Below the pieces are notes generated by a model, which had not been told where the DNA came from, ran no database searches, and saw nothing but the letters and a program-made list of their open reading frames with translations. A DNA stretch of 64,000 nucleotides from Promethearchaeota archaeon. Lineage in GTDB: Archaea; Asgardarchaeota; Lokiarchaeia; Sigyniarchaeales; SOKP01. Where the stretch lies: the NCBI GenBank assembly GCA_019057795.1, contig JAHLWS010000022.1:13729-77728 (forward strand), in the 5' to 3' direction. The translations under genes and the position numbers were made by a program. Each line of letters starts with the position of its first letter. Position 1 is the first letter of the stretch. Shown one piece after another: positions 16,403-26,357 of the stretch.

Positions 16403-18343
16403 ATGGAAAAATCTGAAAATCATCGGATTGGATACTATGCATGCCAGTGAGGTATAAATATACGTAGTAAAGTTGATTGCGACGAGTTAGTACAATTTGC
16501 CAAAGGTTTAGATGATGTAGTTATTTCAAAAACTCATTCCTTTCTATGAACCGAAAGCGGTCAAAACGAGATAATCAAAGACATAGAAGAAAAAGGATTA
16601 AATTGCATCGTAGCTTCTGCTTGAACGCCTAGGACACACGAACCAATTTACAGGGCAACGCTTGCTAAGACCGCTGTGAATCCTTACTTTTTTCAAATGG
16701 TTAACGTAAGAGAGCATTGTTCTTGGTGTACTGAAGATAACGAAGAAGCACTAGAAAAAGCAAAAATCTTGGTTAAAGGCGGAGTTAATAGAGCATTAAG
16801 TTTAGAAGTTGTCCCTGTAAGAACAGTTCCCGTTGAAAAAGCAACCTTAGTTGTTGGCGGAGGAATAGCTGGGATGAACGCCGCGTTAGACCTAGCAAAT
16901 GGAGGGATAAAAGTTTATTTAGTCGAAAAAAATACCACAATCGGGGGAAGAATGTCTCAGTTAGATAGAACCTTCCCAACCGACGATTGTTCGATTTGAA
17001 TTTGCGGACCCAAAATGCTTGAAGTCAATCGCCACGAAAATATCGAGATTCTTAGCTATAGCGAAGTTAAGAAGGTTGAAGGGTATGTTGGAAATTATAA
17101 AATCACCGTTGAGAAGAAGCCACGTTTCATAAATATCGATTGTAATGGTTGTGGTGCCTGTTCTGAAGTGTGTCCGGTATATACTTCGAACTATTTTGAC
17201 GAAAATTTAGGAGTAAGAAAAGCAATAGATATAGCGTTTGGACAAGCAGTACCTTTTTTGTACGACATTAATAGAGATGTATGCGTTGAATGTTTTAGTT
17301 GTGTGGAAGCTTGTGAGTTAGATGCCATTGACTTCAGTCAAGTGCCTGAAGAAGTTATGTTTAATGTAGGAACGATAATAATCGCAACTGGATGGGATAT
17401 TTACGAACCATATGGAGAATACGGATACGGAAAGTTCGAAAACGTGATTCAACAAGCCCAACTTGAAAGAATCTTAGCACCGAATGGTCCATTAGAAGGA
17501 CATGTTCATAGAATTTCGGACGCCAAAAAACCTAAAGAAATTGTGTTTATTCAATGCGTAGGAAGTCGTGACACGGAAAGACCTTATTGTAGTGGCGTTT
17601 GTTGTATGTTATCGTTGAAAAACGGAAAATTGCTTAAAGAAGAATTTCCGGACGCGAATATTACCATCTGCTACATAGATATAAGAACAAACGAAAAAGG
17701 ATTCGAAGAATACTATCAACGAGCTAAAGATTCTGATATCAGGATGATCCGGGGAAAGGTTGGCGAAATTACTGAAGATCCAGAGACTAAAAATGTAAAT
17801 GTTCGAGTTTATTCGTCATTGACTGACGAAATCATTAAAATTAGTGCGGATTTAGTCATTCTATCTACAGCTGCATTACCATCAAAAGGTACGGACCAAA
17901 TAGCTAAAGTATTAAACTTAGATGTCGATAGAAACGGTTTTTTAACAGAAGCTCACTTTGGACTAATGCCACAAGAGACTAAGACTAAGGGAATCTTTAT
18001 AGCTGGGTTTGCTCAAGGACCAAAAAATATTGCGTATTCGGTTTCTCAAGCAAGAGCTGCTGCGAGCAAGGTAGCTGAATTAACTTCTCCTGGAGAAGTA
18101 GACATTGAACTAATAACTGCTGAAGTTAATAACGAGCTGTGTATTTCGTGTAAAAGGTGCGAAAAAGCATGCCCTAAAAACGCAATAACGGTTGTTGGCG
18201 ACGAAGTGGCTATTGTTGACGAGATTAACTGCGACGGGTGTGGTATTTGCGCTACTTGTTGCCCCACTCATGCGATTGACATAAGATGCTATCGAGATTA
18301 TCAATTATTTACTGAAATTGATGGAATCTTAGAAGGAGGTTAA
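16403..18343 (+). CDS. hdrA: Heterodisulfide reductase subunit A, selenoprotein with four in-frame UGA (Sec) codons, 646 aa
   Basis: One frame from ATG 16403 to TAA 18343 with TGA at 16448 (ACQ-U-GINI), 16547 (FL-U-TESGQ), 16622 (ASA-U-TPRTHE) and 16997 (DDCSI-U-ICGPKM). These match CHCGINI, YSCSSDSQ, ASCTPRTHE and DCSLCILAPKM in the Cys paralog at 22814. GGGIAG FAD motif and ferredoxin motifs present. Confidence 0.93.
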
Positions 18344-18348
18344 ACGAA

Positions 18349-18807
18349 ATGGATGATAATTACAAAATTCTAATGTTTGCGTGTTTAAAGTGAGGCTACT
18401 CGGCTGCTGACTTAGCTGGTGTTTCTCGCATGAAATATACGGCGTCGGTAAAGATTATAAAGGTAAGATGTACTGGAAGAGTCGATGTAAAACACATCCT
18501 ACATAGCATAAATGCTGGAGCTGATGGAGTTATGGTCGTAGGATGACGGCCAAATGAATGTCAGTTCAAAAATGGCAATTTTACGGCTCAAAGGCACATT
18601 GATTTAGCAAATAGAATCCTAGACTCTAGAGGATTCGGCAATCAAAGAATTAACATGTACTGGTTAAGTGGAGCAGAAGCAGATAAACTTGTAAAAAGCG
18701 TTGAGGATGCTTACGAAAAAGTAAAAAGATCTGGACCCAATCCTTTAAAAAGCATGGATATTACGAAAGCAAAACAAAAAACATTAACTACTCCCATAGA
18801 AGAATGA
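18349..18807 (+). CDS. mvhD: Hydrogenase iron-sulfur subunit MvhD/VhuD, selenoprotein with two in-frame UGA (Sec) codons, 152 aa
   Basis: Absent from the ORF track. MDDNYKILMFACLK-U(18391)-GYSAADLAGVSR...VRCTGRVD...GADGVMVVG-U(18544)-RPNEC... matches CCNWCSYAGADLAG and GADGVLITGCHIGDC of the Cys paralog at 25920. Ends at TGA 18805-18807. Confidence 0.93.
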
Positions 18808-18860
18808 TTCTTATAAAAAAAATTTAGTTATAAGATGACTTACCTTGCGAAGGAGGGAGT
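18790..18860 (+). promoter_or_regulatory. Eukaryote-like SECIS element (Lokiarchaeota type)
   Basis: AUGAU (18804-18808), helix UCUUAUAA (18809-18816), loop AAAAAAUUUAG, UUAUAAGA (18828-18835), UGAC (18836-18839). This gives a tandem G.A/A.G quartet, a perfect 8-bp helix and an A-rich apical loop. Basal helix ACUCCC (18790-18795)/GGGAGU (18855-18860). Confidence 0.85.
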
Positions 18861-18918: not shown

Positions 18919-20427
18919 ATGGTTCAAGTTGTAAATAGCAAGTTATTTAAGGGAACTTCTCCCAAAGACTTAATGGAGGCTACTTATCAAGCTTCTAGAA
19001 ACTTTCAAGTAAGAGCTTTCTTTGAAGCAAAAGAAGAGATCTTGAAAGTAGGTAAATTTTCTGAAAACGAATTTTACGAAATCCTAGATGCTATGATAGA
19101 TGCCGAAACTGAGCGAAAATTAGTACTGAAAGAATTAAAGGGTAATAAGCCGTTATTTTTAGAAGAAATTGTAAAGATAGTTAAAGATTTCCCTCCTGAA
19201 AATGTTATTAGAGACATTATTTATTTAAAAGAACAAGGGTATGTTCAGGAACATGTGGAAATCAAGACTAAAACGGTAATAAAAAAAATCAAGGGAGAAG
19301 AAAAAGAAGTTGAAGTAAAAGAATTCTTTTATAGGTACCAAGTAAGGGATTTACCAGACGATTTTATTGAGCACTACTTTGAACCTGTTTCTATAGTTTT
19401 TAACGCGGGAGTCTGTTGTCAATGTGGATGGTGTTCTGCGATCTGTCCTGTAAACGCCATTGTAGTGACGGCAGACACTCTTGAAATTGACGAAGATATC
19501 TGCATGAAATGTGGTTTGTGTTTTTCGGTCTGTCCTCGTTCCTTTTCGATAGACCAAGCTAACGAAAGCATTAAAAAGTTAGACAAATCTTTAAAATGGT
19601 CTGACAAAACTGGAGCTTATATTAACGCTTACTCAGCATCAACGACCAAAGATGATATTAAGAAAGTTCGTCAAGATGGTGGTATTGTAACTTCTATCTT
19701 GGAATATCTTTTAGAAAATAATCTTGTTGATGCAATTGTAGCTGTGCAGCATTCTGAAGAATTGTGGAGACCAGAACCTGTAATAGTAGATAATGTGAAA
19801 GATTTATATAAAACGGGTGGAACTAAATATGCAAACTCGCCGTCTTTAACCATCATAGATCAATGTAAGAAATACGAGAAGATAGCTTTCGTTGGGGTGC
19901 CTTGCATGATGAAAGCTATAGAAAAGGGGACTATGTTTCCAAGTGGGTTACCATTTTTTAAAAATATTAAATACAAGATCGGGCTTTTTTGCATGGAATC
20001 ATTTCCTTACGATGGAATAATTAATTTAGCTAAAGATCAGTTTAATAAGGACATAAATGAACTAATCAAAATGAATATTGGAGGCGGTAAATTTATAATA
20101 AATTTGAAATCTGGAGAGCAAATGGATGTACCCCTTAAAGAAGTGAAAAAATACGCGCGCGATAATTGTCATTTTTGTGAAGATCTAACGTCAGATTACG
20201 CCGACATTTCTGTAGGATCAATTGGGTCGCAAGATGGATGGTCTTCTGTAATAACGAGATCGAAAGATGCAGATAAACTATATAACGATATAGTTAAAGC
20301 AGGATTAATCGAATCTAAGAGTTTAAAGGATGTAAAGCCCGGGCAATTTCTAGTAGAAAAAATTGGTGGAACTAAACGAAAAAAATGTAAATCAATAAAT
20401 TTGAAAGAGAATCAAGATGAGCACTAA
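18919..20427 (+). CDS. FrhB/FdhB-family F420-binding subunit with N-terminal winged-helix-like extension
   Basis: Two ferredoxin motifs, RQDGGIVT, VGVPC, IGLFCME, CHFCEDLTSDYADISVG. About 150 extra N-terminal residues. Confidence 0.88.
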   Translation: MVQVVNSKLFKGTSPKDLMEATYQASRNFQVRAFFEAKEEILKVGKFSENEFYEILDAMIDAETERKLVLKELKGNKPLFLEEIVKIVKDFPPENVIRDIIYLKEQGYVQEHVEIKTKTVIKKIKGEEKEVEVKEFFYRYQVRDLPDDFIEHYFEPVSIVFNAGVCCQCGWCSAICPVNAIVVTADTLEIDEDICMKCGLCFSVCPRSFSIDQANESIKKLDKSLKWSDKTGAYINAYSASTTKDDIKKVRQDGGIVTSILEYLLENNLVDAIVAVQHSEELWRPEPVIVDNVKDLYKTGGTKYANSPSLTIIDQCKKYEKIAFVGVPCMMKAIEKGTMFPSGLPFFKNIKYKIGLFCMESFPYDGIINLAKDQFNKDINELIKMNIGGGKFIINLKSGEQMDVPLKEVKKYARDNCHFCEDLTSDYADISVGSIGSQDGWSSVITRSKDADKLYNDIVKAGLIESKSLKDVKPGQFLVEKIGGTKRKKCKSINLKENQDEH

Positions 20428-21542: not shown

Positions 21543-22814
21543 ATAGTAGAATCAAAAAGAGATATTGAGAGAAAAAAGTTATTTGGAGATACCTTAGATT
21601 ATTTAGACAAAATTTATGAACCAGATTTAAGAAAGTTATTAAAGAGATGCTATCAATGCGGGCGGTGTAGCGGAGTTTGTCAATTAAGTAAAGTACAAAT
21701 ATATACTCCAAGTAAAATTATTCAATTAATTTTAGAGGGTTTTGAAGAAAAAGTATTAAAGAGCGAGGTATTATGGGATTGTTTAACCTGTAATCAATGT
21801 CTCAAAGATTGTCCAGAGGAAATAAACTTTGCAGATCTTGTTAGAATGGCCAGATATAAGATGAGACATTCAGCAAATCAAAATATTGATGAATCTATAG
21901 CACATAAAGGAATATATACGATGATTTCAGAAATAATGAGTCGTCCATATATTAATCCTGATAGATCTCTCGAATGGATTCCTAAAGGTTGCAAAATATC
22001 GGAGAAAGGTAATATTTTATATTATGTTGGTTGTTTACCTTTTTTTAATTACGAATTTGATAATTTAGATTCTATAGCAAAAAGTACGCTACAAATTTTA
22101 TGTAACGTCGAAAAAGAGCCTATAGTTGTTTTTAAAGATGAAATTTGTTGCGGACACGATATATACTGGGGTCAAGGAAAGTTAAAAACATTTATTAAGT
22201 TAGCAAAAAAAAATATTGAAATGTTTGAGAAAGCAGGAGTCTCTACTATCGTAACTGCATGTGCTGAATGCTATAGAACTTTTAAGATTGACTATCAAAA
22301 AATTTTTGAAGATTTTAACGAAAAATTTGAAGTAAAACATATTATTGAATACATTTATGAGATGTGGAAGGAAGGTAAAATAGAATTTATAAATACGAGT
22401 CAACCTGAAGAACAAATTTCATTTACATATCACGATCCATGTAGATTAAGCAGGTTTTTACCCAAAGAAAATAATATTACTGAAAATGTTCGGGAAATAT
22501 TTAAGGAATTCAATAAATTAGGTTATAATTTTAACGAGATGGAACATAATAAATCAAACTCGTTATGTTGTGGTGTGAATTCTTGGATGAATTGTAATGA
22601 GAAATCTAAAGCTCTTAGATATAAAAGAATGTTAGAAGCCAAATCTGCTGGTACGGTGCTGGTAACTTCCTGCCCGAAATGTGGGATTCACCTCTCTTGT
22701 CTCCAAAATGATATCGAAGAAATTTCTTCAGTAAAAATTTTAGATTTCTCCGAGTTTTTAGTAAATCATATTAAAGTTATTGAATCCAATAGAAAAAGTG
22801 AGGAACAAAAATAA
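21543..22814 (+). CDS. HdrD/GlpC-like Fe-S oxidoreductase (HdrC-like 2x[4Fe-4S] domain plus CCG domains), non-canonical start
   Basis: The frame is open upstream of ATG 21846 through CYQCGRCSGVC and WDCLTCNQCLKDCP back to a TAA at 21522. The only plausible starts are ATT 21540 or ATA 21543, after the SD GAGGAG (21531-21536). CCG motifs ICCG, HDPC, LCCG, TSCPKC. Confidence 0.85.
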   Translation: MVESKRDIERKKLFGDTLDYLDKIYEPDLRKLLKRCYQCGRCSGVCQLSKVQIYTPSKIIQLILEGFEEKVLKSEVLWDCLTCNQCLKDCPEEINFADLVRMARYKMRHSANQNIDESIAHKGIYTMISEIMSRPYINPDRSLEWIPKGCKISEKGNILYYVGCLPFFNYEFDNLDSIAKSTLQILCNVEKEPIVVFKDEICCGHDIYWGQGKLKTFIKLAKKNIEMFEKAGVSTIVTACAECYRTFKIDYQKIFEDFNEKFEVKHIIEYIYEMWKEGKIEFINTSQPEEQISFTYHDPCRLSRFLPKENNITENVREIFKEFNKLGYNFNEMEHNKSNSLCCGVNSWMNCNEKSKALRYKRMLEAKSAGTVLVTSCPKCGIHLSCLQNDIEEISSVKILDFSEFLVNHIKVIESNRKSEEQK

Positions 22815-25800
22815 TGGAAGGGTCGGTATTGGTTATTGGCGCTGGTATTGCTGGAATCCAAACATCTTTAGATCTAACTGAACTTGGATTTAAAGTTTAT
22901 CTCGTAGAAAGATCGCCTTCAATTGGCGGAAGGATGGCTCAACTTGATAAGACTTTCCCTACAAATGATTGTAGCCTCTGTATTTTAGCTCCGAAAATGG
23001 TAGAGGTGTTTAGAAATCCTAATATTGAGCTAATGACTTATCACGAAGTTAAAAAAATTAGTGGAGATCCTGGGAATTTTACCGTCACTGTTCTAAAAAA
23101 GCCACGTTATCTTGACGAATCCTTGTGCAAGGGATGTGGTGATTGTGCGACAAAATGCCCCAAAATTGAAGTTCCTAATCTCTTCGATATGAATCTTGGC
23201 AAAAGAAAATCAATTTACATACCCTTTCCACAAGCAGTCCCTCCAGTATACCTAATTGATCCCGAGCTTTGCCTTAAGATAACTAAAGGTGTGTGTGGAG
23301 TCTGTCAAAAAGTATGTACGGTTGAAGCGATAGACTTTGAGCAAAAACCTAAAGATATTATTATTAATTGTGGAGCCGTTGTTGTAGCAACGGGATTTGA
23401 TATGCCCGCTGAAAAATTAATTTCAAGATGGGGGTATCGATACCAAAATGTAGTGAGCGCTTTAGAATACGAAAGAATATTATGTGCCTCAGGTCCGTTT
23501 GAAGGTCATGTCTTACGCCCTAGTGACCAAAAAGAACCTGAGAAAATAGCTTTCGTTCAATGTGCGGGATCAAGAGATTTACACGAGAATGTTCCTTATT
23601 GTTCGAGCGTGTGTTGTATGTATACTGCAAAGGAGGCAATTATTACTAGAGAACACTCAGATAATGCTGAATGTTTTGTTTTTAGACACGATATCAGAGC
23701 ATACGGAAAGAATTTTTATGAATTTACCCAAAGGGCTCAAGATGAATATGGTGTAAAATATTTTCAGACAAAAATAAGCACTATAAAAGAAGACCCGGAA
23801 ACAAACGACTTAATTATTCACTATGAAGATTTAAAAAATGGAACATTTAATGATTTTCGAGCTAATTTAGTCGTTTTAGCTACACCATTAGTTCCTACAA
23901 AAGGAACAGAAGAATTAGCAAGCATCTTAAAAGTTGAATTAGACAAATACAATTTTTTTAAAGAAAAATCTTATTTTAATAAATCCTTGTCATCAAAAGA
24001 GGGAGTTTTTTTATGTGGTTTCTGTCAAGGACCAATGGACATACCCGAAACTGTCGCTGACGCAAGTGGAGTAGCATCTCAAGTCGCAGTGTTACTAAAT
24101 TCAGTAAAATTTAACGAAATTAAAGAAAAGAAATATGATGAACCTGAAAAGGAAATAAAGATAACCGACGACCCTCGTATAGGAGTGATTATCTGTCACT
24201 GTGGGATTAACATTGGAAAGTATGTTGATGTTTCTAGTGCTGTAGATTATGTTAAAACATTACCTTATGTTGTTCATTGTGAAGCTAACTTGTATTCATG
24301 TTCTAGTGATTCCCAAGTAAGAATAAGAGAATTGATAAAAGAACATAATCTTAATAGATTTATCGTAGCTTCTTGTACGCCAAGAACCCATGAGTCATTA
24401 TTTCAAGAAACCTGCTTAGAAGCTGGATTAAACAAATATTTATTCGAAATGGTTAATATACGCGACCAATGCAGTTGGGTTCATATGAATGAATATGAAT
24501 TTGCCACTGAAAAAGCTAAAGATTTGATACGAATGGCTGTGGCTAAAGCGCGTTTACTAAAACCTCTTACTGAAACAAAATTAGATATTACCCCAAACGC
24601 TTTAGTTATTGGTGGTGGTGTATCTGGTATGACTGTTGCCCTCAATCTTGCTAATCAAGGATTTAAAACATATATCGCTGAAATAGAAGATAAGTTAGGA
24701 GGTAATCTTAACAACCTTAATATTTTATATCCAATCCACGAGGAGGCTTCAAATTTTTTAAAAGAGATTATAAACAAAGTTGAGAAGAATAAAAATATCC
24801 AGGTTCTCCTCGAGTCAGATATTAAAGAAATTAAAGGATTTATCGGTAATTATAATGTTGTTATTAACGCATCAAATCAAAAAGTTCACGATTTAAAAGT
24901 TGGTACAATTATTATTGCTACTGGAGCTCAAGAGTTAAAACCAGAAGGTATTTTTCAGTATAGCAAAAATAATAAAAATGTAATTACTCAATTAGAATTA
25001 GAAAAAAGATTGAAAGAAAAGGATAAAGCTTGGCTCGACAACATAAATCGCATAACGATAATCCTCTGTGTCAATTCAAGGCAAAAAGAAGGAATAACTT
25101 ATTGCTCAAATATTTGTTGTGCAGTGAGTATTAAAAATATTAGTATTTTAAAAGAAATAAAACCAAACCTCGAAATTGTTGTTTTGTACAGAGATCTCCA
25201 GATGGCTAAAAAGGAGTATGAAGAATACTATCGTAAACGTAGAAAAGAGGCTATGTTTCTGAGATATGATTTAGAAAACATACCAAAAATAGTGAAAAAA
25301 AGTGGTAAATCCGAAAAATATCAAGTATCTGTATTTGACACGAATTTACAGGATAATCTTCAATTTGATACAGATTTAATTGTATTATCAACTCCTATGA
25401 TCCCCTCTGACAATTTAGAAGGATTAGCTAGGATGCTAAAAGTACCATTGGATAAAAATGGGTTTTTCTTAGAAGCACATGTTAAGCTAAGACCTTTAGA
25501 TTTTGCTACAGATGGTATTTTTTTAAGCGGATGTGCTCAATGGCCAAAGAACATTCAAGATTCAATTTCCCAAGCTAATGGAGCTGCGGGGAGAGCAAGT
25601 AGATTTTTAAGCGCTAAAACAATTACAAGCTCAGGATTGATAGCAGAAGTAAACCCAGAAAGATGTATAGGTTGTGGGAAGTGTGTATCCGTTTGTCCAT
25701 ATAATGCTATTGAACTTAAGGAGGCAATTATGGACTTTGAAGAAATTAGTTTAAAAGTTTCAAAATCCTTTATTAACTCAGCAATGTGTAAAGGCTGCGG

Positions 25801-25900
25801 CACTTGTGCGGCAACATGTCCAAACGGCGCAATATCTGTAAAGCATTATGATTTCGATCAAATTTATGCTATGATAGAATCTTATTTATTAGAATCGTAA
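22814..25900 (+). CDS. hdrA: Large HdrA-like polyferredoxin flavoprotein (Cys form, two FAD domains)
   Basis: Two GxGxxG FAD motifs, DKTFPTNDCSLC, internal RIGVIICHCGINI...CTPRTHE domain, C-terminal ferredoxin. Confidence 0.92.
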   Translation: MEGSVLVIGAGIAGIQTSLDLTELGFKVYLVERSPSIGGRMAQLDKTFPTNDCSLCILAPKMVEVFRNPNIELMTYHEVKKISGDPGNFTVTVLKKPRYLDESLCKGCGDCATKCPKIEVPNLFDMNLGKRKSIYIPFPQAVPPVYLIDPELCLKITKGVCGVCQKVCTVEAIDFEQKPKDIIINCGAVVVATGFDMPAEKLISRWGYRYQNVVSALEYERILCASGPFEGHVLRPSDQKEPEKIAFVQCAGSRDLHENVPYCSSVCCMYTAKEAIITREHSDNAECFVFRHDIRAYGKNFYEFTQRAQDEYGVKYFQTKISTIKEDPETNDLIIHYEDLKNGTFNDFRANLVVLATPLVPTKGTEELASILKVELDKYNFFKEKSYFNKSLSSKEGVFLCGFCQGPMDIPETVADASGVASQVAVLLNSVKFNEIKEKKYDEPEKEIKITDDPRIGVIICHCGINIGKYVDVSSAVDYVKTLPYVVHCEANLYSCSSDSQVRIRELIKEHNLNRFIVASCTPRTHESLFQETCLEAGLNKYLFEMVNIRDQCSWVHMNEYEFATEKAKDLIRMAVAKARLLKPLTETKLDITPNALVIGGGVSGMTVALNLANQGFKTYIAEIEDKLGGNLNNLNILYPIHEEASNFLKEIINKVEKNKNIQVLLESDIKEIKGFIGNYNVVINASNQKVHDLKVGTIIIATGAQELKPEGIFQYSKNNKNVITQLELEKRLKEKDKAWLDNINRITIILCVNSRQKEGITYCSNICCAVSIKNISILKEIKPNLEIVVLYRDLQMAKKEYEEYYRKRRKEAMFLRYDLENIPKIVKKSGKSEKYQVSVFDTNLQDNLQFDTDLIVLSTPMIPSDNLEGLARMLKVPLDKNGFFLEAHVKLRPLDFATDGIFLSGCAQWPKNIQDSISQANGAAGRASRFLSAKTITSSGLIAEVNPERCIGCGKCVSVCPYNAIELKEAIMDFEEISLKVSKSFINSAMCKGCGTCAATCPNGAISVKHYDFDQIYAMIESYLLES

Positions 25901-25919
25901 AAATAAAAGCTAAATAATC

Positions 25920-26357
25920 ATGCCAAAAGCAAAGAGAAAAGTAATAAAACAAGAGTTTAATCCAGAGCTACTAGTGTTTTGTTGTAATTGGTGCTCTTAC
26001 GCGGGAGCTGATTTGGCAGGGGTTTCTAGATTTCAATATCCGCCGAACATGAGAATTGTTAGAGTTATGTGCTCTGGAAGAGTTGAACCTTCTTTTATTT
26101 TAAAAGCTTTAAAGGATGGGGCAGATGGGGTCTTAATAACTGGATGTCACATTGGAGATTGCCATTACATAAGCGGTAACGAGTTTACGAAAGAAAGGTT
26201 TGAAAGATTACATAAAATAATAATTAAGCAATTGGGTATAAACGAAAAACGCGTTAGGTTGGAGTGGGTGTCTGCTTCTGAAGGTAAGCTTTTTGCTGAA
26301 TTAATTACAGAGTTTACGAACGATATAAAAAGATTAGGGCCGTTAAAAGTTTTTTAA
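25920..26357 (+). CDS. mvhD: MvhD hydrogenase iron-sulfur subunit (Cys form)
   Basis: FCCNWCSYAGADLAG, VMCSGRV, GADGV..GCHIGDCHY..GN, WVSASEG. Confidence 0.95.
   Translation: MPKAKRKVIKQEFNPELLVFCCNWCSYAGADLAGVSRFQYPPNMRIVRVMCSGRVEPSFILKALKDGADGVLITGCHIGDCHYISGNEFTKERFERLHKIIIKQLGINEKRVRLEWVSASEGKLFAELITEFTNDIKRLGPLKVF

Follow-up and report, generated by a model that had tools for sequence, protein, structure and literature searches.

Stop codon and SECIS core coincide at the end of lokiarchaeial mvhD: a conserved yet not obligatory layout

Introduction

The mvhD gene described here contains three in-frame UGA codons, two of which are positioned to be read as Sec and the last of which ends the protein. 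That last UGA is also part of the core of the SECIS, which raises the question of how a UGA can serve as stop on an mRNA where other UGA are recoded, and whether ending a gene on its own SECIS is a device maintained by selection or a consequence of how tightly gene and element are packed. The gene belongs to a Promethearchaeota archaeon (genome of 4.95 Mb, 31% GC, agreeing with Lokiarchaeia in gene content and type of SECIS) and was studied in a window of 64,000 nucleotides (the whole stretch of DNA that was analysed), to which the coordinates of the locus refer.

This layout is already known. An overlap of stop and SECIS, with the same reasoning that such a UGA cannot be recoded, was reported for Lokiarchaeota vhuU in the account of that gene by Mariotti et al. 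(2016; PMC4989117), while the UGA stops of Lokiarchaeia selenoprotein genes have been found often to overlap the AUGA motif (Huang et al., 2024; PMC11227280), and mvhD is here a further example. What is added is (i) a quantification over orthologs, (ii) the rejection of a backup stop, (iii) a deficit of reading frames that run through the element and (iv) a near-universal third helix.

The hdrA-mvhD locus

The first gene of the pair, hdrA (16403..18343, forward strand), encodes 646 residues with in-frame UGA (Sec) at codons 16, 49, 74 and 199 and stops on UAA; its product matches HdrA models with E-values of 1e-232 to 1e-177, all under the equivalog cut-offs. Five nucleotides further on, mvhD/vhuD (18349..18807, forward strand, 152 residues) starts on the ATG at 18349 and has in-frame TGA at 18391 (codon 15), 18544 (codon 66) and 18805 (codon 153), that is, two Sec codons and the stop. 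In an alignment to the solved VhuD 9sfi_K (E 2e-39), U15 and U66 fall on its X/Sec positions. The product scores 164.7 bits against the VhuD model NF045873 (NCBIfam), short of the curated cut-off of 215, yet its homology to MvhD/VhuD is clear and it has both Sec sites. Upstream of the SECIS there are hence six in-frame UGA, four in hdrA and two in mvhD, at Cys-homologous sites. The gene that follows encodes an FrhB-like protein (18919..20427, forward strand) and keeps its strand and its position at all 80 orthologous loci, its start lying 53-99 nt from the core in every one of them; this fixed neighbour confines the SECIS to a short intergenic space. A second hdrA-mvhD pair 4 kb downstream (22814-26357 in the window) has Cys for Sec, ends GPLKVF and carries neither tail nor SECIS.

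Public DNA runs from other studies span the locus and show no indel at the mvhD stop. Two contig sets from RNA runs (one study, relatives of about 93-96% identity) cover hdrA-mvhD to about 18755-60, with the SECIS outside coverage, and are uninformative on transcript ends or level; a promoter and terminator scan gave no signal above chance. As for the Sec machinery, the genome contains SepSecS (484 bits, over the cut-off), adjoined by a tRNA whose anticodon is UCA (28 bits in Rfam, a weak score), an EFSec-like gene and two Sec-containing SelD genes, both over the cut-off. Two tandem Sec selD genes (L042 and L043, G000 C26:15739-18300) are each provided with a type II element, the AUGA of which follows the stop by about 10 nt.

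A lokiSECIS with a third helix

After GPNP, mvhD continues for 20 sense codons (19 after GPNPL) before the TGA at 18805-07, which is followed in frame by TTC TTA TAA (UAA at 18814-16). The coordinates of the first-pass annotation were right throughout, including its central observation that the in-frame stop is the UGA of an AUGA core (A18804-UGA) and that the basal ACUCCC lies inside the coding sequence. This ACUCCC (18790..18795, codons T-P of the ORF) is the 5' strand of helix I and pairs with GGGAGU (18855..18860), all parts of the element being on the forward strand. The core consists of a 5' strand AUGA-U (18804..18808), in which AUGA is invariant in 23 orthologs, and a 3' strand U-GA-C (18836..18839, GA at 18837-38). 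Between them stands helix II (18809..18835), with 8 bp and an A-rich loop at 18817-27, and the UAA tops its 5' strand. Counted from the core, the stem has nine positions (18808-16 with 18828-36), eight of them Watson-Crick pairs and the first a U.U, and the 11-nt apical loop has six A at its start and UAG at its end. Overlooked at first was helix III, a small extra hairpin CCU-UGCGA-AGG (18843..18853) that makes the element a three-way junction.

Covariation supports all three helices. In an unfitted alignment of 23 orthologs, 87% of cells are paired and 10 pairs show double changes; in 51 orthologs outside model building, whose alignment was fitted to the structure model and is hence biased toward it, 94% are paired, double changes are seen at 15 of 18 pairs and 0 of 500 shuffles match, with the same result as in the unfitted alignment. 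Slid-register controls are only about 50% paired. All the published sequence features of the type I lokiSECIS are present (AUGA, nine-position stem, 11-nt loop, leading adenines, final G, GA), as is its position at the 3' end of a selenoprotein gene with one element per hdrA-vhuD pair, and it is the sole element of this type within the window. By sequence, conservation and covariation the hairpin is a lokiSECIS, which would act in Sec insertion.

That the hairpin is no SECIS or the overlap a recent stop loss in this strain, both of which the first-pass annotation had allowed for, or else that the overlap is an assembly error, has a practically negligible probability. The single-sequence fold is admittedly weak (MFE -13.7 kcal/mol, z only -1.57) and an Rfam scan of the window gave no match, lokiSECIS having no Rfam family, but the match to the published features, the covariation and the stops of the orthologs (58 of 81 share the core stop, see below) stand against it, and the last two refute it.

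A loose genome-wide hairpin scan returned 738 matches, mostly chance, and a strict pattern 16, against 3-5 in shuffled sequence, of which about 10 lie downstream of plausible selenoprotein genes. Across five gene groups, 112 of 113 SECIS have a hairpin in the position of helix III, where about 37 would be expected from shuffles; it lies after the GA of the 3' core and ahead of helix I, its loop often containing GC(A/G)A, and occurs in both selD elements too (L001-L023, L048-L159). The third helix is near-universal among the lokiSECIS examined and is an addition of this analysis: a literature search on Asgard SECIS with a three-way junction found no paper describing it, and the description of the lokiSECIS of VhuU.1 and the HdrA-VhuD pairs, as given in the sections of PMC4989117 on these elements, lacks it on the 3' strand. 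The same sections name the exact overlap for vhuU only, and here it is quantified for vhuD in 81 orthologs. The type I eSECIS-like elements of Asgard archaea (PMC11227280) share the AUGA_GA core, the apical adenines, the lower stem and the frequent stop overlap; that study is without an analysis of reading frames, backup stops or tail selection, and calls the internal loop not conserved. Judging by sequence, the element resembles the type I eukaryotic SECIS in its kink-turn core motif and unpaired adenines, and would likewise act from 3' of the gene. Eukaryotic SECIS differ in having a longer helix II, in lying well inside the 3' UTR and in being bound by SBP2, a protein that Mariotti et al., where they treat Lokiarchaeota, did not find (PMC4989117); the present element gave no match to their Rfam covariance model, has a shorter stem and overlaps the ORF.

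Other candidate selenoprotein genes

Several further elements were seen beside other reading frames. A 69-aa ORF with four in-frame UGA (L036:357-563, minus strand, G000 C63) scores 51 bits against NCBIfam NF041374, GDCCVxC (seleno)protein (cut-off 40), and has a lokiSECIS 24 nt past its stop; this family does not figure in the list of Asgard selenoproteins given by Huang et al. (2024; PMC11227280). An ORF with G-C-U-U and a further UGA (L037:235-594, G000 C78) has no NCBIfam match and a lokiSECIS 12 nt past its UAA, which makes it a candidate undescribed selenoprotein. A 65-aa membrane-anchored ORF with GGG-U-LC (L038:330-524, G000 C26) has its lokiSECIS 7 nt past the stop. Lastly, a well-formed lokiSECIS with the third helix (L039, G000 C24:23608, minus strand) is without an obvious upstream selenoprotein; the only ORF there is Cys-rich, 36 codons long and ends UGA UAA about 45 nt ahead of the core.

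The overlap is conserved yet not obligatory

Among the 81 orthologs with a scored SECIS (the search ran from about 60 nt ahead of the stop to 120-150 nt past it, and some 20 loci in which no SECIS was scored were set aside), the stop is the core UGA in 58 (72%), from six genera, in counts that overstate independence since the genomes are related. The proposed check on ortholog 3' ends thus comes out in favour of conservation. The remaining orthologs stop on UAG at -5 nt (12), UAA at -7 to -19 (10) or UGA at -4 (1). On the ortholog tree, which is of low resolution and in which rows L230 and L231, misaligned by an indel, were given no weight, the states are scattered and at least nine changes of state are needed; most of these came about through slips of a single base, located in the C-run of helix I, in the internal loop or in A-runs of the tail. 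In related families the protein ends 3-4 residues past GPNP, 10-15 nt ahead of the core. Paralog groups differ in how often the core UGA is the stop: 19 of 25 for vhuU (including all 18 same-genus genes scored), 9 of 26 and 5 of 23 in two other vhuD searches and 0 of 14 in a fourth (C87). The exact overlap is conserved yet not obligatory, one among several accepted endings.

Four orthologs of one genus (L232-L235) have a longer, type II-like element, with a stop UGA 4 nt ahead of the AUGA. One vhuD gene (L079:1909-1997) shares 94% identity with the G000 C5 paralog but has a SECIS resembling that of the C42 group, which suggests SECIS exchange between paralogs.

These counts bear on the idea that the overlap is a built-in way of telling stop from Sec. 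Part of it stands, since a UGA in the A site cannot simultaneously sit in the core and the core UGA should thus, on steric grounds, be unrecodable by the same element in cis. That the overlap exists as a dedicated device is not supported: 23 of the 81 orthologs and most paralogs end a few bases before the core, stops on UGA 4-30 nt ahead of a core exist, and the upstream UAA and UAG endings need no discrimination between stop and Sec.

The downstream UAA belongs to helix II

If the core UGA were sometimes read as Sec, for instance by a SECIS-loaded factor acting in trans, the UAA behind it could be a selected backup and a ...PIEE-U-FL isoform would be made. The UAA is indeed common, with a UAA three or four codons on in 52 of 60 core-stop orthologs, but a UAA or UAG within four codons in the core frame is equally frequent at loci that stop elsewhere (24 of 30), and independent pairs show no association between the two. 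Moreover, compensatory changes from U-A to C-G remove the UAA in core-stop lineages, where the next hard stop is then 22-33 codons off, and vhuU and the other vhuD groups are mostly without it (in vhuU the next hard stop is 4-37 codons away, and within 4 codons in 1 of 19). The UAA positions are conserved no more than the remainder of helix II, in which the triplet pairs with UUA next to the conserved loop G. The UAA three codons on is a structural by-product of helix II, not a selected fail-safe, and the backup stop of the first-pass annotation has to be abandoned; reading of the core UGA as Sec is highly improbable.

Reading frames seldom pass the core

Translation in these genes ends on the core or shortly ahead of it and almost never goes past. 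Of 178 distinct gene-SECIS pairs from five ortholog groups (related loci in a bounded search window, representing perhaps 15-20 independent events), the stop is at the core in 93, up to 27 nt ahead of it in 80, farther upstream in 4 and beyond it in 1. When frameshifts were placed in silico in the last 12 codons, 44% would have run past the core, against 1 of 178 observed, and frames reading past the core seem to be avoided. The single gene with a frame through core and helix II (L100) stops 13 nt past the core UGA and has a 14-nt loop and one Sec in its aligned part.

Since a ribosome occupies some 10-15 nt on the 3' side of its A site, termination would open helix I or the core in most of these genes, both where the core UGA is the stop and where the stop lies ahead of it.

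The distribution of UGA points in the same direction. The distal hdrA stops are UAA or UAG in 86 of 86 loci and UGA in none, while genome-wide UGA ends 14% of long ORFs; six UGA stops other than a core UGA lie 4-30 nt ahead of a core. Together, these fit a proximity rule, in which UGA is allowed as stop only near the element. A parallel is the minimal UGA-SECIS distance of eukaryotes, below which a UGA is read as stop (Martin et al., 1996, as cited in PMC4989117). For the lokiSECIS, vhuU puts such a distance at no more than about 84 nt.

The charged tail of MvhD

What leads the reading frame into the SECIS is a charged C-terminal tail of 20 codons (18745..18804, forward strand). The first-pass annotation saw in it an extension beyond a usual GPNPL end, which is true in part, but three Sec-VhuD paralogs and two Cys-type MvhD domains of the same genome also have charged tails. 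The tail is modelled with low confidence (pLDDT 46-62) and changes quickly in evolution, its pN/pS of 0.49-0.74 comparing with 0.07-0.16 in the domain. It nevertheless stays open: in-frame stops occur in 0 of 16 ungapped tails of one clade, against 6.9-8.5 expected from neutral simulation (P 0.006-0.009), and an earlier in-frame stop is found in 1 of 59 in-frame orthologs, while the other two frames contain stops in 47-52 of 59 tails. In L019 the early stop was produced by a one-base change within an A11 run, perhaps through an error of assembly.

One way to account for this is that the peptide, as a flexible charged extension, is what the tail is retained for and that its running into the SECIS is incidental, as might be expected from the similar tails of 15-20 residues on Cys-type MvhD domains that have no SECIS, from a pN/pS under 1 and from the lack of stops. 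Its length varies, however, between 11 and 25 residues across orthologs and the tail is absent (3-4 residues) in the related families; its sole conserved residue is one proline, dictated by helix I, several lineages alter the last residues by frameshift, and a role of the peptide is silent on why frames almost never cross the core. As the main reason for the layout it is possible but unlikely, although it is compatible with the best explanation, given below, as a contributing cause. The open tail reflects selection either on the peptide or on ribosomes reaching the element, two causes that are inseparable in these data.

Is termination on the element selected?

Selection on ribosome arrival would take its strongest form if termination on the SECIS were itself favoured, with each finishing ribosome unfolding the element, stripping or recycling its factors and so resetting it or briefly silencing it as a negative feedback. 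A tail that stays open up to the element, 173 of 178 stops within 27 nt of the core and the uniform core stop of same-genus vhuU all speak for it. On the other hand, the exact overlap is dispensable, as seen from its repeated switches and its absence from the C87 group, and the short intergenic space found at all 80 loci also explains the packing. Besides, only ribosomes past both Sec codons would get to the element, so that its occupancy should be low, and when a SECIS, although of another type, was moved to directly after the coding region in Methanococcus maripaludis, it worked and no impairment was apparent (PMC9622424). We regard such selected termination as rather improbable, and just as doubtful the broader proposition that Lokiarchaeia select termination on, rather than elongation through, a three-way-junction SECIS, coupling termination to Sec insertion via unfolding and reset. 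Feedback on Sec insertion, as the first-pass annotation had suggested, is an unlikely purpose of the overlap, the short space before the next gene being sufficient reason for stop and SECIS to be tightly packed.

A probable explanation: a packed element and a tolerated stop

The best explanation overall, and in our view quite a probable one, is that the SECIS is packed against the end of the gene and that a nearby UGA is tolerated as stop. It draws on sequence, conservation, covariation and the distribution of stops, from which we infer SECIS activity, melting by the ribosome and termination at 18805. A type I lokiSECIS at the end of mvhD would serve all six Sec codons in hdrA and mvhD. Lokiarchaeial SECIS being crowded against the coding end, the terminating ribosome would come to rest on helix I or the core, and a ribosome decoding a UGA at or just before the core would, for steric reasons, have unfolded the element, so that no recoding could take place. 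UGA would be tolerated as stop there and only there, and distant UGA stops on the same mRNA would be avoided. In the mvhD family, a flexible tail would lead the frame to the core, where the invariant UGA offers a ready-made stop; one-base slips that shift the stop to a UAG or UAA slightly earlier would be tolerated, and those that send the ribosome through helix II apparently would not. A purely passive model does not by itself explain the stop-free tails, the 72% of orthologs with a core stop or the 18 of 18 same-genus vhuU genes.

For the annotation of these archaea, packing of element and gene end translates into a simple rule, which is to take as stop, rather than Sec, any UGA that coincides with a lokiSECIS core or lies within about 30 nt of one, and to look for lokiSECIS inside the end of coding sequences. 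If termination on the element were after all selected, it would represent a new link between termination and recoding.
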